A DNA stretch of 64,000 bases from Sphyrna mokarran (GCA_024679065.1 JAGIQG010000003.1:29574001-29638000), one strand, 5' to 3'; positions 12,440 through 62,192 are shown, numbered from the stretch's first letter. Notes: generated by a model not told the origin, from the sequence alone. Numbers and translations: made by a program.

Positions 12440-12650
12440 GATGTAAAGATGCCGGCGTTGGATTGGGGTGGTAAGAACTCAGTAAGAATTTAGCAACACC
12501 AATTATTAATCCAACCGATTTATTTGATAGTAAAAAAGCGAGCTTTCAACACTCCCGTGTCTTCCTCAGGCAAGTGCAGAAAAGCTCGCTTTTTTACTAT
12601 CAAATAAATCGGTTGGATTAATAATTGGTGTTGCTAAATTCTTACTGACA
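12440..12650. mobile_element. Miniature fold-back Penelope-like insertion
   Basis: Inverted arms of about 70 bp; TSD tcattccaa at 12431-12439 and 12651-12659; matches the 3' end of the element at 49772-52114. Confidence 0.9.
12536..12575 (-). ncRNA. Minimal type I hammerhead ribozyme
   Basis: Minus strand: ttgc CTGAGGA a GACAC ggga GTGTT GAAA gctc gc; stem I is weak. Confidence 0.7.
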
Positions 12651-25339: not shown

Positions 25340-27905
25340 CATTTCAAGGAAGGATGAAAGATCAATGAGTTATAGGCCAGTTAGCCTAATTATCAGCCAT
25401 TGGGAAAATACTGGAATGTATTATTAAAGAAGCCTTAAGAATGCTTTTAAAAATGTATAGAATGATTAGAACAAGTCAACATGGCTTTACTAAAGAGTTT
25501 TACTAAATCTTGTTTGACAAATGAATTATGTTTTTTGAGCCTGTAATTTAGTAAGGTGGATAAAGGAACCAGTGGTATATCTGGATTTCTAAAATACATT
25601 CAATAAGATATCACACAAAAGATTACAAGGCAAGGAAAGGGCTCACGGAACTGGGAGCGATGTATTAGCACAGACAGAGGCTTGATTAATAAACAGGAGT
25701 CAAAGAATGGGCATATGCGAGGATTTTCAAATTGGCAGACTGTGATGAGTGGAGTAGCACAAGGACTGATACTGTGGCTTCAGCTTTACAATCTAGATTA
25801 TTGACTTAGGTGAAGACAAAGAGTGTAAAGTATCTAAGTTAGCTGATAACATAAAGCTAGGTGGAAAACTAAACTGCTGGGAGGACACAAGTGAGGCTGC
25901 AAAGAGATATGGACAGATGGGCAATAAGAAGGCAGATGGAGTATAATGTGGAGAAATGTAAAGTTATTCACTTGGAAGATTAGGAAAGCAGAATATTTTT
26001 TAAAAGGTGAGAAACTTGTAAACATTTATATTCAGAGAAACTTGCAGAAGGTGTGCTCGTACGAGGAATGCAGGAAGTCAGCATATAGGTAAGCCAAACA
26101 AATAGGAAGGCAAATGGCGTGTTGCCCTTTATTGGAGTTCTATGAGGAAGTGACTAGTGCGGTAGATAGAGGGGAACCGGTGGATGTGGTGTTTTTGGAT
26201 TTCCAAAAGACGTTTAACAAGGTGCCTCACAAAAGATTGCTGCAGAAGGTTAGGGTGCAGGGAGTTGGAGATAGGGTATTAGACTGGATAGAGGATTGGT
26301 TGTCTAATAGGAAGCAGAGGGTAGGTATTAATGGGTGCTATTCTGATTGGCAGCTGGTGACTAATGGAGTGCCCCCAAGGATCAGTGCTGGGACCTCAAC
26401 TATTTAGCATTTACATAGATGATCTGGAGGAAGGGGCTGAGCGCAGGGTGATGAAATTTGCTGATGACATGAAGATGAGTGGAAAAGCAAATGCGTGGAG
26501 AGTGTGGAAAGCCTGCAGAGGGGTCTGGATAGGTTGAGTGAGTGGGCGAGGACCTGGCAGATGGAATATAATGTTAGCAAGTGTGAGGTTATCCACTTTG
26601 GTAGAAATAATGGTAGGAAGGATTGTTATTTAAATGGTGAAAAGCTGCAGCATGCGACAGTGCAGAGGGACCTGGGGGTCCTTGTGCACGAATCACAAAA
26701 ACACAGTATGCAGGTGCAGCAGGTGATCAAAAAGGCGAATGCAATGTTGGCCTTTATAGCGTGGGAGATAGAATATAAAAGTAGGGAGGTACTTTTGCAG
26801 CTGTATAGGGTACTGGTGAGGCTGCAGCTGGAGTACTGTGTGCAGTTTTGGTCGCTGCATTTGAGGAAAGATAATATTGGCCTTGGAGGGGGTGCAGAGA
26901 AGGTTCACTAAGCTGATACTGGAGATGAGGGCATTGGATTATGAGGAGAGACTGAATAGGCTAGGTTTGTACTTGTTGGAGTTTAGAAGGCTGAGAGGAG
27001 ATCTTACAGAGACATACAAGATAATGAAGGGGATAGATGGGATAGAGGTTGAGAGACTCTTCCCACTTAGCAAAGATAGCAAGACTAGAGGCACAGCCTC
27101 AAAATAAGGCGGGGGGGGGGGGGGGGGGGGGGGGGACATGGTTCAGATCAGAGTTGAGGAGGAATTTCTTCACTCAAAGGGTGGTGAATCTTTGGAATTC
27201 TCTGCCTGTTGAAGTGGTGGAGGCTCCCTCACTGAATATATTTAAGTCAAGGGTGGAAAGGTTTTTGATTAACAAGGGAATTAAGGGTGACAGGGAGAAA
27301 GCGGGAAAGCGGAACTGAACCACTGCAGGTCAGCCATGATCTTATTGAATGACGAGGCAGGCTCAAGGAGCTGAATGGCCTACTCCTGCTCCTATTTCTT
27401 ATGTTCTTATTGAAAGTGGATTAGAGTACAAGAATAAAGAAATCTTCCTAGATTTGTACAGGATTTTGGTGAGACTGAACCTGCAGTTTTAGATACAATT
27501 TTCATTTCCACAATTAAGAGAGGATATCCTTGTGTTGGAGTTAGTACAGCAAATGTTCACTAAGCTGGTCCCTGGGATGAAGGGGTTGTACTTCACTGGG
27601 GTTGAATAACTAGGTTCTATATCCTCTGCAGTTCTGAAGAACAAGAGGTGATCTGATAGAAACATACAATATTCTGAAGAGGTTAGATGATATCTTAAAC
27701 ACACAGGCATAATCTCAGGGTAAGGGCTGATTATTTAGGATTGAGATGAAGGGAAATTATTTAATTCTTTACCCCAGAGGATTACAAATGTTTCATTGTT
27801 GAACATATTTAAGGCTGGAATGTACTGGGGAATGAAGGAGTTGAAGCCACAATTGTACTGGATGGTGGAACGTATGGTCTACTCCTGTTCCTAGTCTTGT
27901 GTGAT
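25340..27905 (+). mobile_element. Old CR1 with a younger CR1 (about 26131-27410) nested inside
   Basis: The old copy breaks at ...cctttattg and resumes at ...ttattgaaagtggattagagtac; the inner copy has DFQKTFNKVPH, FADD and its own ttcttatgttctt tail. Confidence 0.9.
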
Positions 27906-28151: not shown

Positions 28152-28348
28152 TGATGTAGAGATGCCGGCGTTGGACTGGGGTAAACACAGCAAGAAGTCT
28201 GACAACACCAGGTTTAAATCCAACCGATTTATTTGATAGTAAACTCACAAGCTTTCGATTTATCTGACAAAGACCAGAGGGTCGAAAGCTTGTGAGTTTA
28301 CTATCAAATAAATCCATTGGATTTAAACCTGGTGCTATCAGACTTCTT
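28152..28348. mobile_element. Miniature fold-back Penelope-like insertion
   Basis: Inverted arms of about 65 bp; TSD atccgagcagWca at 28139-28151 and 28349-28361; hammerhead motif at 28259-28296 (+). Confidence 0.9.
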
Positions 28349-31409: not shown

Positions 31410-32583
31410 TATAATACAAGAAATATATTTATATAACACCTCCCACAATCTCAGGAAACCCCAAAGAATTTTAGAACCATTGGAATGCTTTGAATAGAAA
31501 TCAATGATCAGGTCATCTTTTGCTGGTATTGATTTGATAGAAAAATACTGGGCAAGATGCTTGCCCAGCTCTTCCTCAAATAGTACCGTAGGGTAGTCCA
31601 CATCCCCCTGATCTTAATTTATTTTGTGAAGATGCCAGTGTTGGACTGGGGTAAGAAGTCTGACAACATCAGGTTAAGTCCAAGCTTGTGAGTTTACTAT
31701 CAAATAAATTGGTTGGACTTAAACCTGGTGTTGTCAGACTTCTCACTTAATTTATTTCACAGACGGTGAGCTGGGTTTAATACAGCAATCTGCCTGAGGG
31801 AGTTCTGCATTCCTTCTTTTCAAGAAAGCCACCCAAACAAAGTGTCACTCAGGCACTTAACTAAACAGTGGTGGGTTTTCCAAGGTCAAGGGCCCAGGGA
31901 TGGAGGTGCTGCCCATTGAGAGTGACTGACCCATCAGAGGCCAGCATTGGACAACAGCACCACTGAAGCAACAGTGGTTGCTGCTGGTATGACACCCACC
32001 TGAGGCCCACTGTCATTGCTGCAAACCAAACCACAAATGAATGATGAGGGGGAGGGTAGCATTCATAAATGGGAGAGGTGTCAACAGCAAAGTCAAGGTG
32101 TGGCTCTCTTATCAGGCAACATTCCCTCCCTCCACCCACTTCTAATGCCAGGTTCCTCAATCAGGCACCAAGTGTGTTTAAACAAGAGACCACCCTCCAC
32201 CCCAAATCCACAAGCAACCCCACGTGTTTTTCTGTCATGTTCTCTGCATTTTAACCCCTTGCGCCCTCTGAACACTGGGTTAATATCAGCAGCACCAGGA
32301 TGAACTCCTGAAGTGGGCATTGAAAAGCTCAATGAGAAGACTGTCTGTGGGTTGTCTTGCCATTGACTTAATCGGGGGGAGGGGAGAAAGGTGATAGCAT
32401 TCAGACCTATCACCCACCCATGCAATTAAATGCCTGGCTAACATAAAACCCACCATGTGGGAAAGGCATTAAATCCCAGTGCAGTGTACCCTCAGTACCT
32501 AACTGATGTCTCTGGAGTGGTACTTGAATCCACAACCATCTGACTCAGCGGTGAGAGTACCAGTACTGAGTCATGGTTGACAA
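31410..32583 (-). mobile_element. Old Deu-type SINE split by a MITE-like insertion
   Basis: Tail (atatttatataacacc) at about 31424, body ctcttcctcaaatagt, and head (ggtacttgaatccacaaccatctgactcag) at about 32520-32580. Confidence 0.55.
31625..31745. mobile_element. Miniature fold-back Penelope-like insertion
   Basis: Inverted arms of about 30 bp; perfect TSD cttaatttattt at 31613-31624 and 31746-31757. Confidence 0.88.
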
Positions 32584-34347: not shown

Positions 34348-34426
34348 CGACATGAGTGATAACATTGACCAGTCGCTGTGTGAGCTCTTGAAGTGACATC
34401 TCTTCTTCCCTCAGACAGAGAAGCAT
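34348..34426 (-). CDS. MCF2L2: First coding exon of an MCF2L2-like Rho GEF (DBL family)
   Basis: Encodes MLLCLREEEMSLQELTQRLVNVITHV plus G|gtaaga (phase 1). This matches my recollection of the human MCF2L2 N-terminus MLSCLKEEMPPQELTRRLATVITHV|DEIMQQ. Exon 2 was not found in the window. Confidence 0.82.
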
Positions 34427-35733: not shown

Positions 35734-36159
35734 GATGTAGAGATGCCAGCGTTGGACTGGGGTAAACTCAGTAAAGTTTGACAACACCAATTTTAAATCC
35801 AACTGATTTATTTGATAGTAAATCTGCGAGCTTTCGGCCTTTGTGACCTTCGTCAGGCGAATGAGGTGTTCTGGTCTCCAAAAGCACACATATCAGCACA
35901 GACAGTTTACAGATTGCTGATTAGAATGCGAATCCTTACACCTAACCTGCCATTCAAGTCTTAAAGTGGCTAACAGCAGAGGTTAGAGGGATGTGTATTG
36001 TCTCCAGACAGCACAGTAAGTGAGGTTTTTTGCTAACCCAGGCAAGTCATGGGGGTTACAGATAGTGTGACATGAAGCCAAGATCCCTGTTAAGACCGTC
36101 CTCATGTGTGTGGAACTTGGCTATCAGTCTCTGCTCAGCGACTCTGCGCTGTCGTGTGT
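35734..36159 (-). mobile_element. 5'-truncated Penelope-like element (not inverted)
   Basis: Homologous to about 51670-52114; TSD ctgggactcag at 35723-35733 and 36160-36170. Confidence 0.9.
35822..35862 (-). ncRNA. Minimal type I hammerhead ribozyme
   Basis: Minus strand: attcgc CTGACGA a GGTC acaaa GGCC GAAA gctc gcagat. Confidence 0.75.
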
Positions 36160-36331
36160 CTGGGACTCAGACCAAATCTGTGCTATGGTGAGAATGTTTA
36201 TCTATGTTCTTTTCAATTCTTTATTTATGAAAATCTACTGGTAAACCTAAATGGCAAATATATGATCATAGGTACTAACTTTGTTAACTTACAGTTGCTT
36301 GTTTCCCAACTTGAGCTGATGTCTTTCCCAA

Positions 36332-41942: not shown

Positions 41943-43137
41943 TAGAACATAGATAGAACATAGAACATTACAGCACAGAACAGGCCCTTCGGCCTTCGAT
42001 GTTGCGCCGACCAATATAAAAAGCAATGCCCCTCCAAACTAAACCATTCCCTTCTCTTCCATATACTTATCAACTAACTCTTAAACGCCACCAAACTTGG
42101 CGCATCTACAACTGCTGCAGGCAGGGCATTCCACTCCCGAACCACCCTTTGGGTAAAGAACCTACCTCTGATATCCGTCTATAACTATCACCCCTTAATT
42201 TAAAGCTGTGTCCCCTCGTGCTAGCTTTCTCCATCCTAGGAAAAAGGCTATCACTGTCCACCCTATCTAAACTTCTAATCATCTTATATGTTTCGATTAG
42301 GTCCCCTCTTAGCCGCCTCCTTTCTAACGAAAACAACCTAAAATCCCTCAGCCTCTCTTCATAAGACCTGCCCTCCATACCAGGCAACATCCTGGTAAAC
42401 CTCCTCTGTACCCTCTCCAATGCCTCCACATCTTTATTATAATGTGGGGACCAGAACTGCACACAATACTCCAAGTGCGGCCGCACTAGAGTTTGTACAG
42501 TTGCAACATGACGTTGCGGCTCCGAAATTCAATCCCCCTACCAATAAAAGCTAAGACTCCATATGCCTTCTTAACAACCTTATCGACTTGAATGCCTACT
42601 TTCAGGGATCTATGCACAAATACACCAAGATCCCTCTGTTCATCAACATTATTAAGAATCCTACCATTAGCCCTATACTTTACACATTTATTATTCCTGC
42701 CAAAGTGCATTACCTCACACTTTTCCACATTAAACTCCATTTGCCACCTCTCGGCCCAGCTCTGCAACTTGTCCAAGTCCCTCTGCAAACTATAACACCC
42801 CTTCTTCACTATCTACCACTCCACCGACTTTAGTGTCATCTGCAAATTTACTAATCCATCCTTCAATACCCTCATCCAGATCATTTATAAAAATTACAAA
42901 ACAGCAGGGGCCCCAAAACAGACCCCTGAGGTACACCACTTGTCACCGAACTCCACAATGAATATCTCCCATCAACCACCACCCTCTGTCTTCTATCTGC
43001 TAGCCAATTCCTAATCCAATTAGCTAAATCACCCTCTATCCCATACATCTGCATTTTCTGCAGAAGTCTTCTATGGGCCACCTTATCAAACGCCTTACTA
43101 AAGTCCATATATACCACATCAACCGCCTTACCCCCTT
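41943..43137 (-). mobile_element. Young CR1, 5'-truncated
   Basis: [38 protein letters not shown]; (tagaaca)n tail. Confidence 0.95.
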
Positions 43138-43779
43138 CTGTAAAAATTGGTGAGAGTCATTACGGACGTGTGGAATTTCTTTTGTGTTTATTATATGAAA
43201 AATTTATTTCGGACAGTGATTTCAAAGTATAAAACAGTTAATTATTTACTTACAATGTATAATTCACAAGACATCTGTAAAAACAAAATCCTCCACATAT
43301 TAATATAGATTCACTAAATCTGCTATGGCACAACATTGAATATCATATTAAAATGTTGGAACTAACAATATAATTTATCACATGATAAAACAGCAATCAG
43401 AGTCTTTTTATGAATATTTCTGTGGATAACTGTCCTCCCATTCAATAGCTGATACGAGTGGAATTGATAATTATGTTTCAACTGCAAAGTGTCTGCCAAT
43501 TATTTTTGCAAATCCACTCAGGTAAAGTATCACTTTTGCTAAACTGCTACAGTCAGCAATTCAAATGTGAGTTACCTAAGCCAAACTTCTGCTGCATATA
43601 TTGCTGCCCAGATTAATCCTGCTTCACATCACAGCTTGCTTACAGTCCCACCAATCACTTCACTTGTGGAATGCAGGAGATTCAACTACACTCGAGGAAT
43701 ACTAAGCCAATAAAGGAGATTCTCTTAATTTTAAAAGTAAATGAAGTACTTGTGGAAGCATTGTCATGATGAATGTAGC

Positions 43780-48480: not shown

Positions 48481-49819
48481 CCTATAGCCCGGTGGTTGGA
48501 GTCAATGCCCCAGCCTTCTCTCATCCTGCCCTCTCTCAATACCACTCTTTTTGAGAATGAGGAGCTGAATTTATCTTCATCATTAATGGAACAATAAAGG
48601 CACAAGTGCTGTGCGAAGGAAAAATAAATGTCAAGTATGTAATAAAAAATCTAATTATTCTATCAGTGGACTATTGATGTATCAGAGGAATGTAAATAGA
48701 TTCAAGCAGTCAGCATAAAGTTCGATCAAGGACTTTAGGGTATAATTTATTTCAGACATTCATCTTGTAAGAAACAAAATGTATCACAGGTGAGAGAGAA
48801 GAAAGCAAATGTTCCTCTGCTGTGCACATTGTTGCCACACTGAAGCTTTCTATCCTATTAAATGGATTCAATCTCACAAGGTTGGTCTACATGTTAGGAT
48901 AAATATATCATGGCTATCATAGCCATGGTATATCTACCCTAATACCAGACAAACAAGAATACATGACAAAGCTTAAGACTGCATAAGCTGATTCTTGGCT
49001 TTCTAGAAGTTAAAGAAACTTCATGTGATAATAAGATGTAAGAGTCAAACTATTAATTAAAGGCGCAGTGTAGTTTTTTTGAAAACTCAAACATTTGATT
49101 AATGTGACAATTTCACAAGGTTTTCGATGAATTTAAACTTCACAAGCTTTATAAAAGGCAAAGTTGGGCTATTCTTAAACAATGCTTTTGTAGGTGTTGT
49201 TTTCAGTGGCATAGTTGGTGGGGTTGGGTGGGGGGGGCGAGGCTGCAGGTGGAGCAACTGCTTCCCCTGAGCACATTTTTTTCAGAAGTGGCGTCTTTTT
49301 AATGAGGCGGTCCCCATGGGTCCCTGCAGAGGCTGCGAAGGACATAAATATGCTCAATAACTCCTGCCCATACCAACCTCCTGATTGACAACTCACAAGC
49401 CAATCCTAGGATGCTATGTCACCCTCCTCCCCACTCCGCCAATCCAGTACATGGGACCTCATGTAGTGCTGACTGACAGCTGAGTTCATCAATCACAGCA
49501 TGGGCGCGTCCACAAGTTCTGCCAATCCGGACATGGCTCCTCAGTCCTGCTCCGTCAGTGGGATGGCCCAGTCTATGGATGAACATTGGGATTCAGCAGT
49601 CTTCATTTTTCAGAAATGATAATGTTTTAACATTCACAGCAAACATTATGCAGGTCAGAGTAAAGTATTTTGTTAGCTGTCAGCAATGGTGAACAAAAAT
49701 GTATTGAAATGCTGTTAAGTCTGCAAATCCACCTGATGTACCAGTGGAGGGAGTTTGTTCTGAATAAAGTTAAGTTTCACAACACCAATTTTAAATCCAA
49801 CCAATTTATTTGATAGTAA

Positions 49820-49860
49820 ATTCGCGAGCTTTCGACACTATGTGCCTTCGTCAGGCAAAT
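49820..49860 (-). ncRNA. Minimal type I hammerhead ribozyme
   Basis: Minus strand: atttgc CTGACGA a GGCAC ata GTGTC GAAA gctc gcgaat. Confidence 0.82.
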
Positions 49861-50977
49861 GCAGTGTTCTGGTCTGCAATAGCACTCATATCAACACAGA
49901 CAGTCATAGATTGCTGATTAGAATGCGAATCCTTACATCTAACCTGCTATTCAAGTGTTAAAGTGGCTAACAATGTGTGTGAAGGGAATCCTGAGCATTG
50001 GTTAGAGAATTGTGTATTTTCTCCAGACAGCACAGTAAGTGAGGTTTTTTGCTAACCCAGGCAATTTACGGGGGTTACAGATAGTGTCTCATGAAGCTAA
50101 GATCCCTATTAAGACCGTCCTCATGTGTGCGGAACTTGGCTACCAGTCTCTGCTCAGCGACTCTGCGCTGTCGTGTGTCCCGAAGGCCCCCTTGAAGAAC
50201 ATTTACCCGCAGGTCGGAGGCCGACTGCCCATGACTGCTGAAGTGTTCGCCCACAGGAAGGGAACTGTTTTGCCTGGTGATTGTTGAGCGATGCTCATTC
50301 ATCCGCTGTCGTAGTGTCTGCATGGTCTCCCCAATGTACCATGCTTCGGGACATCCTTTCTTGCAACGTATTAGGTAGACAACGTTGGCCGAGTTGCAAG
50401 AGTATGTACCGTGTACCTGGTGAATGGTATCCTCACGTTTGATGATGTCGTCCATGTCTATGATCTGGCATGTCTTGCAGAGGTTGCTGTGGCAGGGTTG
50501 TGTGGTATTGTGGTCACTGTTCTCCTGAAGGTTGGGTAGTTTGCTGCGAACAATGATCTGTTTGAGGTTGTGCGGTTGTCTGAAAGCAAGAAGTGGGGGG
50601 TGGGGATGGCCCTAGCGAGATATTCATCATCATCAATGATATGTTGAAGACTGCGGAGAAGATGTCGTAGCTTCTCTGCTCCAGGGAAGTACTGGACAAC
50701 AAAGGATACTCTGTCCACTGTGTCCCGTGTTTGTCTTCTGAGGAGGTCAGTGCGGTTTATCGCTGTGGCACGTCAGAACTGTCGATCGATGAGTTGAGCA
50801 CCATATCCTGTTCTCATGAGGGAATCCTTCAGCGTCTGGAGGTGTCTGTCACAATCCTCCTCATCTGAGACTGTCGATCGATGAGTCGAGCGCCATATCC
50901 TGTTCTCACGAGGGCATCCTTCAGCGTCTGGAGGTGTCTGTCACGATCCTCCTCATCTAAGCAAATGAGGAGGATCC

Positions 50978-51772
50978 TCAGATGAGGAGGATCATGACAG
51001 ACACCTCCAGACGCTGAAGGATGCCCTCGTGAGAACAGGATATGGCGCTCGACTCATCGATCAACAGTTCCGACGTGCCACAGCGATAAACCGCACTGAC
51101 CTTCTCAGAAGACGAACATGGGACACAGTGGACAGAGTACCCTTTGTTGTCCAGTACTTCCCCGGAGTGGAGAAGCTACGACATCTTCTCCGGAGTCTTC
51201 AACATATCATTGATGACGATGAATATCTCGCTAGGGCCATCCCCACCCCCCCACTTCTTGCTTTCAGACAACCGCACAACCTCAAACAGATCATTGTTCG
51301 CAGCAAACTACCCAACCTTCAGGAGAACAGTGACCACAATACCACACAACCCTGCCACAGCAACCTCTGCAAGACATGCCGGATCATAGACATGGACGAC
51401 ATCATCAAACGTGAGGATACCATTCACCAGGTACACTGTACATACTCTTGCAACTCGGCCAACGTTGTCTACCTAATACGTTGCAAGAAAGGATGTCCCG
51501 AAGCATGGTACATTGGGGAGACCATGCAGACACTACGACAGCGGATGAATGAGCATCGCTCAACAATCACCAGGCAAAACAGTTCCCTTCCTGTGGGCGA
51601 ACACTTCAGCAGTCATGGGCAGTCGGCCTCCGACCTGCGGGTAAATGTTCTTCAAGGGGGCCTTTGGGACACACGACAGTGCAGAGTCGCTGAGCAGAGA
51701 CTGGTAGCCAAGTTCCGCACACGTGAGGACGGTCTTAATAGGGATCTTAGCTTCATGAGACACTATCTGTAA
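50978..51772 (+). CDS. Penelope ORF C-terminal part: RT thumb, Cys-rich linker, GIY-YIG endonuclease (5'-truncated, frame open)
   Basis: PCHSNLCKTC linker; NVVYLIRC..C..WYIGET..LRQRMNEH; VGEHF; GLN. Confidence 0.88.
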   Translation, partial: SDEEDHDRHLQTLKDALVRTGYGARLIDQQFRRATAINRTDLLRRRTWDTVDRVPFVVQYFPGVEKLRHLLRSLQHIIDDDEYLARAIPTPPLLAFRQPHNLKQIIVRSKLPNLQENSDHNTTQPCHSNLCKTCRIIDMDDIIKREDTIHQVHCTYSCNSANVVYLIRCKKGCPEAWYIGETMQTLRQRMNEHRSTITRQNSSLPVGEHFSSHGQSASDLRVNVLQGGLWDTRQCRVAEQRLVAKFRTREDGLNRDLSFMRHYL

Positions 51773-51985
51773 CCCCCGTAAATTGCCTGGGTTAGCAAAA
51801 AACCTCACTTACTGTGCTGTCTGGAGAAAATACACAATTCTCTAACCAATGCTCAGGATTCCCTTCACACACATTGTTAGCCACTTTAACACTTGAATAG
51901 CAGGTAGATGTAAGGATTTGCATTCTAATCAGCAATCTATGACTGTCTGTGTTGATATGAGTGCTATTGCAGACCAGAACACTGC

Positions 51986-52026
51986 ATTTGCCTGACGAAG
52001 GCACATAGTGTCGAAAGCTCGTGAAT
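51986..52026 (+). ncRNA. Minimal type I hammerhead ribozyme
   Basis: atttgc CTGACGA a GGCAC ata GTGTC GAAA gctc gtgaat; predicted cleavage after 52020. Confidence 0.82.
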
Positions 52027-52934
52027 CTACTATCAAATAAATTGGTTGGATTTAAAATTGGTGTTGTGAAACTTTACTGAGTTTACCCCAGTCCAACGCC
52101 GGCATCTCTACATCCTGAATAAAGTTGGCAGATAAATTCAGTCTGCCCCTTTTCTTGCTTCAGTGTAACTTGACTGCTTGACAATCACATACAACACAGT
52201 ACCTGATCATCTGTGATTAGTCAACATGACACATCACCTTATTTCACTCAGAGTTTCAATGTTTTGGAATAGGAAGAGGATAAATCAATGCCAAGAATTT
52301 GCATTTTATTTATTTCAACTAAAACTTACTGAGAAAAAATTGACACCGAGCCAAAAAGAAAAAGAGACAGGTGACCAAAAGGCTGATCAACAGGGTAGGT
52401 TTTTAGGGGCACCCATACAATTATAAATGTGTTTAATTTTTTTGGTGTTTATTTTAGTTTGAAAAAAGAGGTGTTTTGGTCAAAAATAAATGTTTTTTTT
52501 AAAGAAAATAAATTACTGAGAAAAGAACTGTTGGTTTGCATGCAATATGATGATGCCAGACTGTGATGATGTCAGTTTGGAGCGAGGCATGTACAGGGTG
52601 GGCGGGGATTGGCAGAATAGTAATAAGGGAGCGGTCCTTTTTTATGCCGTGATGCCTTTTTTATGTTCTTGCTCCCTCTAATCTTTGAATCTGGCTACAC
52701 CATTGGTTGTTTTGTATAAAGGAAATGCGATTCAAATTCATTAAGCCTTCCAGCATTTTTAAACTGTACATTAAGCCTCATAGAACAATTGGAAAATATC
52801 ATGCAGTCTTGCATCTCAACAGAAAAATATGGCACAAAATTCTGCTGGTGCTTCTAAATAAGAGTTCCTGAAAATCAGTGGGAGTTTTTTGCAGCTTCCA
52901 ACAAAGAATCAGAATGCAGTGCTCTCTCCAAGCA

Positions 52935-55900
52935 AATGGGGCTCATTTTAATCCAGTTTGATTCCTGTCTTAGTTCTGTTGGTGATTACTGTCCCTACAA
53001 AAGTGCTGTCTTTTCCTCTCCCCCTCTTGTGTGTGCCTTACAACTGCAACTCTGGTTTCGTGTTGCTCTTTTGCCTCTTTTTTTTAAACAGCTATCGTAA
53101 CTACTACCCTTTCCCATGCTTGTCTTTAGTTTGCCCCCTCCACCAGACTTCTCTTTGGCCATCCAAATTAAATACTTTTCCCCTCATTTTCTTTATCAAT
53201 TTTATATTATCATCAACTATAGTTTGTGCTCACCAAAGAGAAGGACTTGGTAGATGATGAGTTTGGGAAAGGATGTGTGGATAGTTTGAGTCATGATGAG
53301 ATCAAAAAGAGGGAGGATTGATGTGCTTGAGAAACATTAAGGTAGACAAGTTCCCAGGGCCTGATGGATATACCCCATTATAGTGAGAGAGGCAAGGGAG
53401 GAAATTGCTGGGAGCTTGAGAGAAATCTTTGTATCCTCACTTGCTACAGGGGAGGTCCCAGAGGATTGGAGAATAGTTAATTTGTTCCTTTGTTTAAGAA
53501 GAATAGTGAGAATAATCCAGATGAGCCTTACATCAGCAGTATGGAAATTATTGGAGAGGATTTTTCAAGATGGGATTTATTCCCACTTGGAAATAAGTGG
53601 ACGTATTAGTGAGAGGCAACATGATTTTGTAAACGGAAGATCATGACTTGATCAAGTTTTTCGAAAAAGTGACAAATATGATTGATAAGGGTAGAGCAGT
53701 GGATGTTGTCAATATGGACTTCAGTAAGGCCTTTGACAAGGTCCCTCATGGCAGACTGGTGCAGAAGGTGAAGTTGCATGGGATCAGAGGTGAACTAGCA
53801 AGGTGGATACAGAATTGGCTCAGTCATAGGAGACAGCGGGTAGTAGTGGAAGGGTGCATTTTTGAATGGAGGGCTGTGACAATTATTGTTCCTCAGGGAT
53901 CAGTGCTGGTACCTTTGCTGTTTGTAATATATATAAATTATTTGGAGGAAAGTGTAACTGGATTGATTAGTAAGTTTGCAGATGAGGCAAAGGTTGGTGG
54001 ATTTGAGGATAGTGACGAGAATCATCAGAAGATACAGCAGGATATAATCAGTTGGAGGCTTGGGCGGAGAAATGGCAGATAGAGTTTAATCTGGACAAAT
54101 GTGAGGTAATGCATTTTGGAAGGTCTAATACTTTGGCAGATAGGATAAAGGAGAACCCTAAAGCTTTTAATAGATATGTTAAGAATAAAAGATTGGTTAG
54201 GACAAGATTAGGGCCAGTCAAAGACAGTAGTGGGAAGTTGAGTGTGGAGCCTGTAGAGATTGATGAGGCACTGAATGAATATTTTTCGTTGGTCTTCACA
54301 CGGGAAAATGTCAACGGAGTTGGGGAGAATACTGGGATACAGGGTTGTAGACTAGACAGGATAGAGGTACATAAGGAGGAGGTGTTAGCTATTCTTGAGA
54401 GTATGAAAATAGATAAATCCCCTGGGCCAGATGGGATTTATCCCAGGTTACTCTGGGAGGATAGAGAGCAAATTGCAGAGCCTTTGGCTTTGATCTTCAT
54501 GTCGTCATTGGCTACAGGTGTAGTGCCGGAAGACTGGAGGATGGCAAACGTTGTCCCCTTGTTTAAGAAGGGGAGCAGAGACCATCCTGCAAATTATAGA
54601 CCAATGAGCCTTAGATCTGTAGTGGGGAAAGTTTTGGAAAGAATTATAAGGGATAGGATTTATAATCATTTAGAAAGAAATGAATTGATTAGGGATAGTC
54701 AGCATAGATTTGTGAAGGGAAGGTCGTGCCTCACAAACCTTATTGAGTTTTTTGAAAAGGTGACTAAAGAGGTGGATAAGGGTAAGGCAGTTGATGTGGT
54801 GTACATGGATTTTAGCAAGGCGTTTGATAAGGTACCCCATGGAAGACTACTGCAGAAAATGCAGATGCATGGGATTGAGGGAGATTTAGCAATTTGGATT
54901 AGGAATTGGCTAGATGATAGAAGAAAGAGGGTGATGGTTGATAGGATATATTCAACCTGGAGTTTAGTTACTAGTGTGTACCTTTGGGATCTGTTTTGGG
55001 GCCATTGTTGTTTGTTGTTTTTATAAATGACCTGGATGAGGGCGTAGAGGGTTGGGTTAGTAAATTTGCTGACGACACCAAAGTCGGAGGAGTTGTAGAC
55101 AGTGAGGATGGATGTTACAGTTTGCAGAGGGACATAAATAAGTTGCAGAGCTGGGCTGAGAAGTGGCAAATGGAGTTTAATGTGGAAAAGTGTGAGGTGA
55201 TTCACTTTGATAAGAGTAACATGTGTGCAGAATATAGGGCTAATGGTACGGCTCTTAGTAGTGTAGATGAGTAGAGAGATCTCGATGTACAGGTGCATAG
55301 AAAGTTGGTACTCAAGTTGATAAGGTTGTTAAGAAGGCGTATAGTGTGTTAGCATTTGTTGGTAAAGGGATTGAATTTCGGAGCCGAGATGTCATGTTGC
55401 AACTGTACAAAACTCTAGTGCGGCCGCACTTGGAGTATTGTGTACAGTTTTGGTCGCCACATTATAAGAAGGATGTGGAGTCATTGGAAAGGGTGCAGAG
55501 GAGGTTTACCAGGATGTTGCCTGGTATGATGGGCAGGTCTTATGAGGAAAAGCTAAGGGACTTGAAGTTATTTTCATTAGAGAGAAGAAGGCTAAGAGGT
55601 GACTTAATTGAGACATATAAGATGATCAGAGGGTTAGATAGGGTGGATAGTGAGAGCCTTTTTTCTCGGATGGAGATGGATAACACGAGGGGACACAGCT
55701 TTAAATTAAGGGGTGGTAGTTATAGGACAGATGCTAGAGGTGAGTTCTTTACTCAGAGGGTAGTAAGGGCGTGGAATGCCCTGCCTGCAGCAGTTGTGAA
55801 CTCTTCAAGTTTAAGGGCATTCAAATGGGCAGTGGATAGGCATACGGATAGCATTGGAATAGTTGAAGATAGAGGGTCATAAAATTGGTTACATTGGTCA

Positions 55901-57180
55901 GCGCAACATCGAGGGCCAAAGGGCCTGTACTGCGCTGTAATGTTCTATATTCTATGTTCTAATACAGATAGGAAATATATAGTAAATGGCAGAAATTTTA
56001 AGAGTATTGATAGACAAAAGAATCTAGGTGTACGTGTACACAGGTCACCGAAAGTGGTAATGCAGGTAAAGAAGGTAGTCAAGAAGGCATGCGGCATGCT
56101 TACCTTCATCGGCCAGGGCATTGAATTTAAAAATTTGCAAGTCATGTTGCAGCTTTATAGAACCTTATTTAGGCCACACTTGGAATAAATTGTTCAACTC
56201 TGGTTGCCACGTTACTAGAAGGATGTGGAGGCTTTGGAGAAGGTACAGAAGAGATTTATCAGGATGTTGCCTGGTGTGGAGGTATTAGCTATGAGGAGAG
56301 GTTGGAAAAACTTGGTTTGTTCTCACTTGAGTGACAGAGGTTGAGGGGAGATCTGATAGAAGTCTACAAGATTATGAGAGGCATGGACAGAGTGGATACT
56401 CAGAGAAGCTTTTTCGCAGAGTGGAAGAGTCAATTACTAGGGGGAATGGGGTTAAGATGTGAACGGCAAGTTTTAAGGAGATGTATGAGGCAGATTTTTT
56501 ACACAGAGAGTAGTGGGTACTGGAACTCATTGCTTGGGAAGGTAGTGGAAGTGGATACGGTAGTGACTTTTAAGGGACGTCTTGACAAGTACATGAATAG
56601 GATGGGAATAAAGAGATATGGTCCCTGGAAGGGTAGGAGGTTTTGCTTAAGTTGGGCAGCATTGTCTGTGCAGGCTTGGGAGGGCCAAAGGGCCTGTTCC
56701 TGTGCTGTAATTTTCTTTGTTCTTTGTGCGATAGATCCTTTGGGTCCCCCATTGTAAATCCCCTGCACCTGCACCTGTTTTATTACACCCAGCCATCTTG
56801 GCCAATTTTGCACTCTCTATCATGGGCTTCTTTTCCCCGTGGCTCTACCTTCTCACAGAATCATCTGATGTGGCTACTCCTCCTCACTGTAAGTGAGACT
56901 CTTCAATCTTTTCTCTGCTTTTTCCCTGGCGTGGGTTTTATGTGAAAACTTTGCTAAAGCTGCTTAAATTTTTTCATTAATACTATGCCAAGGCACATGG
57001 TATTAACCTTTGATTTCCTCAAGCTCACACAGTCAGACTCTTTCTGCATATAGTCCTTTTAGTACTGCAACTTACAGCTGGCCAAGGACTAGTGTGGAAT
57101 CATTCCCCTAATTATGGTTGATAAAATAAACCTACTCACCTGACTTGGACCCACATAGTCACCAGTCATCCAGTATGGTA
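52935..57180 (-). pseudogene. ERV leader and gag 5' remnant, split by CR1
   Basis: Removing the CR1 (TSD tttgtgc at 53223-53229 and 56723-56729) restores the frame NGGPKGSIAQTIVDDNIKLIKKMRGKVFNLDGQREVWWRGQTKDKHGKG downstream of the PBS. Confidence 0.55.
53230..56722 (+). mobile_element. CR1 with a younger CR1 (54132-55957) nested inside
   Basis: Inner TSD tctaatac at 54124-54131 and 55958-55965; both copies carry RT motifs and their own tails. Confidence 0.93.
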
Positions 57181-58302: not shown

Positions 58303-58829
58303 TAGTAAGAGGTCTCACAAATCCATGCTAAAGTCCAACAGGTTTATTTGAGAGCACAGGCTAGCTTTCGGAGTGCTGCTCCTTCACTTGGTGAGTGGGA
58401 TTTCAGTTCACAAACAGGGCATACAAAGACACAAACTCAATTTACAAAATAATGATTGGAACACAAGTCTTTACAGGTAATCAAGTCTTAAAGATACAGA
58501 CAATGAGAGTGGAGAGAGGGTTAAGCACAGATTAAAGAGATGTGTATTGTCAGGATAGTTAGTATGTGGACTCTATCTTGGTTTCCAGAATGCTGTGCTT
58601 GCTATTGAGCTAGTGTATGAGGTGGTGGAGGAGTGTGAGAGAAGTGCAATGGCAAAGTCCTTCAGTGTAGTCTGTGTTATATGTTGACCTGAATGGGTTC
58701 GTGATCTGTAGTCTTTTCGGTATCTCGTCTGCTTTCTTGCATCTTTGTAGAAACTTGATGTCTGTGTTGATATGCACGATCTTCTTGGAGATCCTCTCCA
58801 CTTGGAGCTGGCAGTTTGCGGTGTCAATG
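58303..58829 (-). mobile_element. Internally deleted Penelope-like element
   Basis: ORF N-terminus (IDTANCQLQVERISKKI..DIKFLQRCKKADEIPKRLQITNP) joined to a pLTR with a mutated hammerhead at 58361-58397. Confidence 0.75.
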
Positions 58830-60554
58830 AACCTCATACACGAACTCTACAGCAAATGCTGCATTATGAAAACCAAGATAATGCCCTACCCATGACAGAG
58901 GTTGTGGCATTGTGGGTTGGACCTGGTCTTTGGCAGAGAACTCAAGATGATGCAGAAAGGTCCTGGTTAACAAAACTGACATACTACTCTCGGAGGTGAA
59001 ATCTTTACTGAAAACATGAATTCCCATCTTTTTAGTTTGTAGAGCTAGCAGTTCAGGGCTGTTAGTGTTGGAAGGATACATAGCATAGTAGCTGAGTAGT
59101 ATGGTACATTAGCTAATGGGCTGAGTTCCAAGCAAGTGGTTGAAATAGCTGTCATGGAGAGGAAAGAGTATGTGTAGAAATAGGAGGGGACAGAGAGCAA
59201 AGCCTTTAATACAATGGTGGAATGCAAGTCAAACACAAGGGAGAGGCAGACAGTTGAGGAATGCACGGAAGAGAGGGAGAAAAATGCATGGCAAAGTGTG
59301 AAATGGAGTTAGATGATGATAAAGGAAATGATTGGAAAATGATGGCAGTGAAAAATGTTAAGAGGAGAAATGAGGGATATTGAAGGCCATGAATACAGAG
59401 GTAAGTGACAACAGGGGGAAACAGGAAATAGATGGGGATGAATGGAGAGAGAAAGGGAGAGGATGGGAGTGGATCCTCAATACATGCAAAACTGTGAACG
59501 ATTTAAAGAGCTGGCAGATGGATTCCTCCAACTGGCATGCTGCATTGCTAGTGACATCCAATAGATCTCTATGTCATTCAGCCTTTTGCAGATTTTCCAC
59601 CAATAGTCAGCAGACCGATTCCAGAGGCTAATTATCAGACCAGATACCTCTTCCTCATCTGTTCTCTGAAAGCCGGGGGAGCTCAGCTGAATTTCCTGCT
59701 GCAGACATGTGTATATGCAGTAACCACTAGTTGGTGTGATCCAACTTGAACTCTATTACTAAGACCCACTATATTGCATGTACCTGAGCTGGTGGAAGAT
59801 GCAATTGATAACAATGATGCCTCAAATGGTGATGAGCTCTCCTCTTGCACTCCATCCTGTCTTCTTGCTGTGCTGGGGATGAAGATGGAGATGGGATCCT
59901 CCTCCTCTTCTGCCTGTGACCTTGTGCAAGTGAGATGGCAGAGCACCCAGTGACAGCATCAACTGCCTCCAAAGCAGAGTCAGAGGCACATTCCAGCCCA
60001 GGGCCCCATTCAACAGGAGCATTCTTATCAGGTGGAAGGCAATGGCCCAGCTCCGCATGACACAACGGCTCAGTCCTGTTCAAATGATCTGCAAGCTCCA
60101 ATGCCCTTGTACTCAATGAGGGGCTTGTGTTGTGCCAGATCCCCTCCTGTCTTCTCCCACTCCCTCTGATTGTACCAGTGTCTCTCCTGATCAAAGAGAA
60201 GAACAGTTGAGAGGGGTTGCATGTTACAGATTTTGGATTGCTGCATTTCAGATAACTCAGCATGCCTTTGGAAGATAGCTCACTTCTGTGCAGCACATTA
60301 TTATTCTTGTGAACTGGGCAGAGGTTATGCCCAGCTTCCCCCAGAGTACAGTGCAGATCCTCACACCAGGGAAAGGCTCATACATCCATGTGATGTGGAG
60401 AATGCTTGTTCTCTCACCACCTCCCCCATGGCATTGTGAACTATCAGCCGCAGCGGAATTGTACTCAATCATACTCTGTAACCTCACGGTCCAACATATT
60501 GCCTACAGAACAAATATTTCTCTTCGGTATTCACGCAGGGAGATGTAAATGTAG

Positions 60555-62192
60555 TTGTGGAGAACACTGGGATACAGAGTTGCAAACTGGAAAGTATTAA
60601 AGGAGATAAGGAGGATGTGCTAGATATTCTTGAGGGTTTGAAGTTAGATAAGTCCCCTGGGCCGGACGGGATTTACCCTAGGATTCTCTGGGAGGCGAGA
60701 GAGGCAATTGCAGAGCCTCTGGCTCTGATCTTCAGGTCGTCGTTGGTTACGGGTGTGGTGCCGGAAGACTGGAGGATAGCGAATGTGGTCCCATTGTTCA
60801 GGAAGGGGAAGAGAGACCTTCCTGGGAATTATAGGCCAGTGAGTCTTACTTCTGTTGTGGGCAAAGTATTGGAAAGAATTATTAGGGATAGGATTTATAG
60901 TTATTTAGAGAGAAATGAATTGATTGGGGATAGTCAGCATGGTTTTGTGAAGGGTAGGTCGTGCTTTACTAACCTTATTGAGTTTTTTGAAAAAGTGACC
61001 AAAGAGGTGGATGGGGTAAGGCAGTTGATGTGGTATATATGGACTTTAGTAAGGCGTTCGATAAGGTGCCCCATGGAAGGCTTCTGCAGAAAATGCAGAT
61101 ATATGGGATTGAGGGTGATTTAGCTAATTGGATTAGGAATTGGCTAGCTGATAGAAGACAGAGGGTGGTGGTTGATGGTAGTTATTCATCGTGGAGTTCG
61201 GTTACAAGTGGTGTACCTCAGGGGTCTGTTTTGGGGCCCCTGCTGTTTGTAATTTTTATAAATGATCTGGATGAGGGTATTGAAGGATGGATCAGTAAAT
61301 TTGCAGATGACACCAAAGTCGGAGGAGTGGTAGATAGTGAAGAGGGGTGTTATAGTTTGCAGAGAGACTTGGACAAGTTGCAGAGCTGGGCGAGAGGTGG
61401 CAAATGGAGTTTAATGTGGAAAAGTGTGAGGTAATTCACTTTGGCAGGAATAACAAATGTGTAGAGTATAGGCTAATGGTAGGACTCCCAATAGTGTTGA
61501 TGAACAGAGGGATCTTGGTGTATATGTTAATATATCCCTGAAAGTTGGCAATCAAGTCGATAAGGTTGTTAAGAAGGCATATGGAGTCTTAGCTTTTATT
61601 GGTAGGGGGATTGAATTTCGGAGCCGCAACGTCATGTTGCAACTGTACCAAACTCTAGTGCGGCCGCACTTGGAGTATTGTGTGCAGTTCTGGTCCCCAC
61701 ATTATAAGAAAGATGTGGAGGCATTGGAGAGGGTAAGAGGAGGTTTACCAGGATGTTGCCTGGTATGGAGGGCAGGTCCTATGAAGAGAGGTTGAAGGAT
61801 TTGAGGTTGTTTTCGTTAGAAAGGAGGCGGCTAAGAGGGGATCTTATTGAAGCATATAAGATGATTAGAGTTTAGATAGGGTGGACAGTGATAGCCTTTT
61901 TCCTAGGATGGAGAAAGCTAGCACGAGGGGACACAGCTTTAACTTAAGGGGTGATAGTTATAGGACGGATATCAGAGGTAGGTTCTTTACCCAGAGGGTG
62001 GTTAGGGAGTGGAATGCCCTGCGTGCGGCAGTTGTAGATGCGCCAAGTTTGGTGGCGTTTAAGAGGTTAGTAGATAAGTTTATGGACGAAAAGGGAATGG
62101 TTTAGGTTAGAGGGTCATTGCTTTTTCCTAATTGGTCGGCGCAACATCGAAAGCCGAAGGGCCTGTTCTGCACTGTAATGTTCTATGTTCTA
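60555..62192 (+). mobile_element. Young CR1, 5'-truncated
   Basis: DKSPGPDGIYPR through FADDTK to the ttctatgttcta tail; same subfamily as 41943-43137. Confidence 0.95.

Follow-up and report, generated by a model that had tools for sequence, protein, structure and literature searches.

Structure of the insertion

The 64,000-nt stretch of Sphyrna mokarran DNA analysed here (GCA_024679065.1 JAGIQG010000003.1:29574001-29638000; the window, counted from its first letter) carries at 49772-52114 an insertion of a Penelope-like retrotransposon. The insert is flanked at both ends by exact copies of CTGAATAAAGTT, a 12-bp target-site duplication (TSD) with no third occurrence in the window, and holds two inverted arms that both face outwards (Table 1). 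Aligned to each other over 1,098 nt, the arms differ by 25 substitutions and two one-base gaps (97.5% identity). A sequence-only reading of the locus had described near-identical arms of ~1.1 kb within one perfect TSD, inserted in a single event; self-alignment and the one exact TSD enclosing both arms agree with this, and separate TSDs for each arm were looked for and not found at the centre. The arms do mirror each other, as that reading held, but the palindrome is imperfect in ways it did not mention: the right arm alone has a 40-nt tail, the left arm contains a 92-nt tandem copy and a 12-nt templated insert lies at the centre.

The left arm represents the 3' 1.1 kb of the element and stops 40 nt before the element end; the arm starts are at most 6 nt apart. 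Beyond the 92-nt re-copy the left arm holds six natural upstream bases, their context being seen in five other copies, and the whole re-copied segment (50870-50966) is likely the product of a backward jump of the polymerase. The junction insert repeats 50981-50992 directly and 50945-50956 in inverted orientation, in the latter case with an 8-nt loop between the copies; the hairpin is predicted at -11.5 kcal/mol (DNA parameters). The last seven bases of the left TSD copy (49765-49771) equal the element's antisense sequence at the inner start site, and the arm start repeats part of them rather than using them as homology. Differences between the arms cluster, with 17 of the 25 substitutions in the inner 241-270 nt and eight in the outer ~830 nt. 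Substitutions private to the left arm number 12 in its inner 241 nt (50629-50869) against at most two in the outer 850 nt; this patch possibly derives from an older copy or from local hypermutation.

The window copy is a dead, 5'-truncated insertion that keeps only the C-terminal part of the protein and lacks the reverse transcriptase (RT) core. The open GIY-YIG frame claimed for the right arm is present, but not there alone; the left arm also keeps an open nuclease piece, with a one-base deletion near 50601 shifting the frame upstream of it. The assignment to Penelope-like elements holds. [quoted passage not shown] The best named protein relatives of the longer copy come from sharks (Heptranchias, Scyliorhinus and Mustelus; 84-88% identity). 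The nuclease carries the CCHH motif (VYLIRCKKGCPEAWYIG, then two histidines), the cysteines lying between the GIY and YIG halves, and the linker CHSNLCKTC between RT and nuclease matches CX2-5CxxC (here CX4CxxC). Judged by the published definitions of both motifs in EN+ and Neptune/Nematis elements (PMC8557442), these features fit the Neptune/Nematis type, a label based on the linker motif.

Table 1. Features of the insertion and its surroundings (window coordinates)
Feature	Position	Strand	Evidence
Left TSD, 12 bp	49760..49771	+	Exact match to 52115-52126
Left arm, tail-less	49772..50869	-	Arm alignment, family comparison
Left-arm minimal type I hammerhead, predicted cut beside 49826	49819..49860	-	Descriptor scan
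Open 178-codon piece: CX4CxxC linker and GIY-YIG nuclease	50075..50611	-	ORF; Pfam E 3e-5
Tandem re-copy of the innermost 92 nt (50870-50961) plus 6 nt of natural upstream sequence	50870..50966	-	Self-alignment, five other copies
Templated junction insert, 12 nt	50965..50976	+	Self-alignment
Open 267-codon frame: end of RT thumb region, linker and GIY-YIG nuclease, RT core absent; codon 142 is the first Met	50969..51772	+	ORF; Pfam E 1e-4
Right arm, mirroring the left	50977..52074	+	Self-alignment
Right-arm minimal type I hammerhead, predicted cut after 52020	51986..52026	+	Descriptor scan
One-sided tail, 40 nt	52075..52114	+	Self-alignment; same pattern in 60 of 69 head-to-head insertions
Right TSD, 12 bp	52115..52126	+	Exact match to left TSD
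MCF2L2, first coding exon found (context)	34349..34426	-	Vertebrate MCF2L2 proteins as tblastn queries (81% identity, E 1e-5)

Head-to-head insertions across the family

The 2.77-Gb genome contains 7,336 exact matches to one 26-nt pattern of the family. When the first 100 matches on one contig were compared, neighbours less than 5 kb apart were arranged minus-then-plus 15 times, plus-then-minus never and on the same strand three times; scaled from this one contig end, the genome holds roughly a thousand palindromes. An inverted arm lies directly upstream in 23 of 39 other best matches to the right end; of 60 loci extracted with two further queries, 59 gave usable hits, and 31 of these have such an arm. 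The head-to-head layout is the family's normal and commonest product, and the window locus is an ordinary insertion of a very common shark-type Penelope-like retrotransposon. The layout has also been published, and the idea that this locus is notable in itself finds no support.

We compared 69 head-to-head insertions, the window copy and 68 taken from 116 extracted loci (17 of which were chosen as close pairs of 26-mer matches on one contig), after dropping a segmental duplicate (L137) and insertions touching the edge of the extracted sequence. One tailed and one tail-less end are combined in 60 of them; one insertion has two tails and eight have a damaged or irregular end. Among 54 single-orientation insertions the tail is present in 26 and absent in 25. 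Since the two kinds of end are about equally frequent there, both start sites must be in use, and the palindromes pair them one per end. The TSD measures 10-17 bp in 57 of the 69 insertions and 12-14 bp in 49. Of the insertions, 53 are regular and have a TSD; among these the tail-less arm exceeds its partner by more than 40 nt in 17, the tailed arm does so in 27, and in the remaining nine the arms are within 40 nt of each other. Because a fold-back copy cannot hold sequence that its template lacks, the 17 cases with the longer tail-less arm require a second primed strand. Two-piece junctions (n = 59) show overlaps of 1-7 nt (23), direct abutment (6) or inserts (30), and in nine of the 20 inserts of at least 7 nt the match to the insert's own flanks exceeds that to 95% of control flanks.

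Several junctions are more elaborate. Extra short pieces occur at the centre of five insertions (L084, L089, L107, L110 and L130), some of which continue one arm in inverted orientation, as happens in L1-type twin priming or with template jumps. Four others (L051, L059, L111 and L119) contain iterated templated inserts, 22-58 nt long, of the kind attributed to polymerase theta end joining. A self-propagating palindromic element, comparable to a miniature inverted-repeat transposable element, was considered and rejected, as the central junctions differ among the 69 insertions. The sole identical pair, L136 and L137 (~9 kb apart on contig C1, same palindrome and TSD), is a local segmental duplication and was counted once. 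Nor is L056, which gives a 2.3-kb match, a second copy of the window palindrome; its junction and TSD differ. L036 and L134, which belong to different subfamilies and were inserted independently, share one 13-bp site in repeated sequence (near-identical flanks, same TSD), possibly a target hot spot. Partial tandems forming pseudo-long terminal repeats are present in five family copies (L031, L054, L071, L079 and L135) and absent from the window copy.

One template or two

Markers of lineage upstream in the arms suggest that partner arms in this family were mostly read from two different RNAs. Between partner arms, 44 of 220 marker cells are discordant (20%; 27 pairs with identical fine 3' haplotype), and between unrelated arms with an identical 3' haplotype 972 of 4,650 (21%). 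All three strongly linked sites differ in six of 45 partner pairs, every pair lying within one TSD. A lineage allele carried by one arm recurs in its partner in 102 of 123 instances within the last 150 nt; further upstream the counts are 18 of 53 and 6 of 19, the chance expectation there being ~0.3. Two very young pairs differ at four sites each, of which three and two, respectively, are markers. The 3'-end types (matched to within one core difference) agree in 61 of 61 partner pairs against 1,817 of 4,126 cross pairs (44%); one locus, L050, is mixed at finer 3' sites. Taken together, the asymmetry of the tails, the longer tail-less arms and the discordance of upstream markers mean that fold-back fails as a general mechanism. 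The family alignment also reveals a mosaic in which body haplotypes recombine freely against 3'-end types.

Other explanations of these patterns were tried. A polishing artefact does not account for the discordance, with 4.2 private changes per kb in arm interiors against 3.8-4.8 near unique flanks and allele sharing no higher near the junction (0/7). Subfamily succession was set aside as the cause of matching 3' types, the age clocks of the three main types overlapping (medians 0.8-0.9%, p 0.56, n 9-15) in a test that is coarse. A rule drawn from 23 palindromes, that symmetric insertions have one template and asymmetric ones two, lost force on enlargement to 69, where discordance is ~10% in both classes; the symmetric L113 and L122 with different linked haplotypes weaken it too. 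Shared private alleles are unlikely to be RT errors, because the youngest pairs differ at only one or two non-marker sites per kb. A start of both arms on one RNA, one arm then switching, was rejected: with four divergent, under-sampled loci and three one-template loci excluded, the region near the 3' end shows no enrichment of rare shared alleles.

The open literature yielded no paper stating a two-RNA origin of inverted Penelope arms, subscription papers (Arkhipova 2006 and Evgen'ev and Arkhipova 2005 among them) and supplements being outside the search; the accessible part of a 2026 retrozyme preprint (10.64898/2026.07.22.740005) has no bearing on the matter.

Origin of the window copy

The window copy is likely a one-template exception, as judged from its alleles. 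Its arms are discordant at none of 28 markers and share eight departures from the nearest copies, four of which occur in no other sampled locus; two patterns, each joining two such alleles (one allele common to both), match these two arms alone in the genome. Only one of the eight shared alleles is of CpG type compared with 18 of the 25 arm differences (p 0.005), and the shared alleles therefore likely predate the insertion.

The sequence-only reading had the cDNA folding back and being copied before integration. Part of this stands for the window copy, where one template and a snap-back signature are seen, and fold-back may have contributed to it. However, the arms are not simple copies of one another: the left has the six extra 5' bases and the re-copy, the right has the tail, and neither lies wholly inside its partner. 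For most of the family the proposal does not hold, the partner arms apparently coming from different templates. The junction can be read either as a top-strand snap-back around the 8-nt loop or as the meeting of two cDNAs, both halted at one base, which jumped back by 92 and 17 nt before a self-complementary AT joined them. Both readings need priming of the tail at a second nick, unless the tail of the left arm was trimmed afterwards.

Proposed mechanism and alternatives

We consider it probable that the arms were made by reverse transcription primed from both cut target strands within the one 12-bp duplication. The layout, the TSD, the tail asymmetry and the family statistics were observed; the steps that follow are our reconstruction. 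The enzyme would nick both strands, at positions 12 nt from each other. Extension of the top strand would begin at the inner start site, without the tail, and that of the bottom strand at the outer one, with the tail; both cDNAs, truncated, would then be joined head to head, a short templated insert lying between them. Two different RNAs would be the source of the arms in most family members. In the window copy either a single RNA would have been read from its two ends as far as one shared stall point or, about equally plausibly, a long top-strand cDNA would fold back and meet a short, tail-bearing cDNA from the other nick. Hammerheads and nuclease frames would be passengers. The tail asymmetry of the palindromes matches the two RT start sites and the two-strand cleavage and extension described in vitro (PMC11167929).

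Rather unlikely, in our judgement, is a single priming event in which one cDNA folded back and copied itself, as proposed for self-priming in PMC3846280, with the one-sided tail left by nuclease trimming during resolution as in PMC8557442. The closeness of the arm starts, the top-strand snap-back hairpin, the private alleles common to both arms and the excess of symmetric insertions all speak for it. Yet the left arm, with its natural extra bases and re-copy, would have to be the first strand and has no tail, and the simplest fold-back slip would not account for the 12-nt insert together with an undamaged right-arm start. Such an event also sits poorly with the different templates of most partner arms and with tail-less single insertions being as frequent as tailed ones. 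The usual two-template insertion with later homogenization by gene conversion between the arms seems quite unlikely. The short spacer would favour pairing, the uneven spread of arm differences (eight sites in the outer 830 nt, 17 in the inner 270 nt) would suit it, and so would the clustering of left-arm changes, which affects 9 of 40 CpG positions against 2 of 58 (p 0.007, with the boundary picked after looking). Converted decay should, however, be rich in CpG changes, unlike the shared alleles, and the disparity persists when two like cases chosen for their many shared alleles are added (3 of 29 shared against 44 of 93 differing); the inner part holds shared alleles as well. An assembly or amplification chimera, or two independent insertions, is extremely improbable. 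No read or contig crosses the insert, but one exact TSD surrounds both arms with none at the centre, 25 arm differences (18 of the CpG-decay type) are not expected in a technical mirror copy, and the same layout with a TSD recurs at dozens of loci.

Several points weigh against priming from both strands or limit the two-template argument. Arms of near-equal length are more frequent than expected (within 10 nt in 6 of 69 insertions, against an expectation of 0.8) and symmetric insertions share more unique alleles (1.5 against 0.4-0.8 per kb, p 0.006), an excess that favours a fold-back route for a minority, the window copy included. Six of the 12 most symmetric insertions share no unique allele, and marker discordance is alike in symmetric (29/305) and asymmetric (115/1,129) insertions. 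The proposed model does not account for the concentration of private left-arm changes in the inner 241 nt. The order of events is inferred from end products alone. Marker sites, bins and subfamilies were set on the same small sample after looking at it, neighbouring marker sites are linked and thus not independent, and later gene conversion from other copies may explain single cases. Among public contigs none spans the insert, the search being swamped by other family copies, and no empty site was found among the joints listed from them.

Hammerheads, MCF2L2 and neighbouring sequence

One hammerhead on each strand had been claimed, and the descriptor scan found exactly these two in the window. 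Each core comprises stem I (6 bp), CUGACGA, an unpaired A, stem II (5 bp) and GAAA-GC-UC, with no helix III; a minimal core of this type is present in 151 of 189 sampled family arms. An Rfam scan detected no hammerhead, and its four sub-threshold miRNA matches on the central hairpin were dismissed as chance. The catalytic fold of the right-arm hammerhead is not its lowest-energy fold by prediction. In a modelled read-through RNA of the insert 2,258 of 2,343 nt are paired, including both cores, each with the other arm. The ribozymes are predicted to be inactive; single minimal hammerheads showed no cleavage in vitro (PMC4209133).

The insert is indeed near MCF2L2, as had been stated. The gene was located by tblastn on the minus strand, with exons at 29.40-29.61 Mb, after an exon motif search had found nothing and a CRAL_TRIO_2 search had given no hit near the window. 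The insert lies ~15.3 kb upstream of the start codon in the first coding exon found (Table 1), outside the stretch that the identified coding exons occupy; the 30 kb past the window yielded no additional exon, and an untranslated upstream exon may exist. Two candidate first coding exons, the one in Table 1 and one on contig C882 (~29,562,600), match different vertebrate isoforms. That the palindrome acts on MCF2L2 as double-stranded RNA, as a source of small interfering RNA or as a ribozyme switch appears very improbable. The extensive pairing predicted for the read-through RNA and a minus-strand gene with its first coding exon found 15 kb off would allow it. Against it, the insert is outside the span between the coding exons found, public contigs, of which the RNA origin is a guess, show no transcription, about a thousand similar palindromes exist in the genome and the arms decay at CpG like neutral DNA; the inertness in vitro of single minimal hammerheads and the pairing of both cores with the other arm point the same way.

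Elsewhere in the window, two short, older head-to-head pieces of the family end (28153-28345 and 12440-12648; 80-88% identity) and three older family fragments (35734-36160, 58557-58863 and 31682-31741, one of them a 5' piece) were seen, together with a 49-nt inverted repeat at 48894-48942 (24-nt arms, 88% complementary). Broken long interspersed element RT pieces lie at 53400-56800, 60482-61795, 42106-43232 and 26093-26911, and from their translation we take them to be CR1/L2-like.

Discussion

The layout described here is already in the literature, and what we add is the comparison of 69 insertions at family scale. The insertion unit of Pen2/Pen2a in Adineta vaga, an inverted 5'-truncated copy with a one-sided 30-40-bp tail and a TSD (PMC3846280; general scheme in PMC8557442), shares the head-to-head arms, the tail at one end, the single TSD and the junction palindrome. 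It differs in that the arms here reach 1.1 kb and include the nuclease region, and the self-priming proposed for it (PMC3846280) fits at most a minority of the shark family. The purified enzyme of PAc (Poseidon, Anolis carolinensis) cuts and extends both strands and uses two start sites with the tail between them (PMC11167929). Two start sites split by the tail, cutting and extension of both strands and a hammerhead near the element end are features in common, to which a predicted protein dimer may be added (PMC11167929). In contrast, the shark family has the CX4CxxC linker that Poseidon lacks, and in PAc the two strands did not differ in the start sites observed, whereas 60 of 69 insertions here pair tailed with tail-less ends; a two-RNA model is not given in the accessible part of PMC11167929. 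As in LINE-1 twin priming, both DNA ends are extended by RT and joined by microhomology or small inserts (PMC11702581). Second priming in LINE-1 is internal on the same RNA and the arms do not overlap, whereas both arms here start at the element 3' end and fully overlap; inverted insertions from two transcripts are rare there, nine being reported (PMC11702581), and here two templates are seemingly the rule. The hammerheads resemble the minimal ones of metazoan Penelope-like elements in lacking helix III, in the unpaired base before stem II and in the palindromic AGCU, and opposite-strand pairs are also on record, with no substantive difference from those found here (PMC4209133).

A more speculative idea, which we think unlikely, is that Penelope-like elements are pseudodiploid like retroviruses, a protein dimer holding two RNAs joined via the AGCU palindrome of the minimal hammerhead. 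The dimer would prime one RNA on each nicked strand, at different start sites. This would explain the strict asymmetry of the tails, the two-template arms, the mosaic haplotypes and the matching 3'-end types (among subfamilies of similar age), and also why the ribozyme core is conserved though its cleavage is dispensable in vitro. The sole direct hint of RNA pairing, a weak one, is a predicted two-molecule fold at the AGCU palindrome.

The window locus is ordinary, and it is of value as one of about a thousand natural outcomes of a reaction for which the cited papers do not yet define the individual steps. A purified enzyme exists (PMC11167929), which brings a test of two-RNA priming within reach. 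If two RNAs are primed on both cut strands, the published self-priming would be the exception and the enzyme would write DNA at both ends of the break; recombination between co-carried RNAs would then be a route for the evolution of the family.

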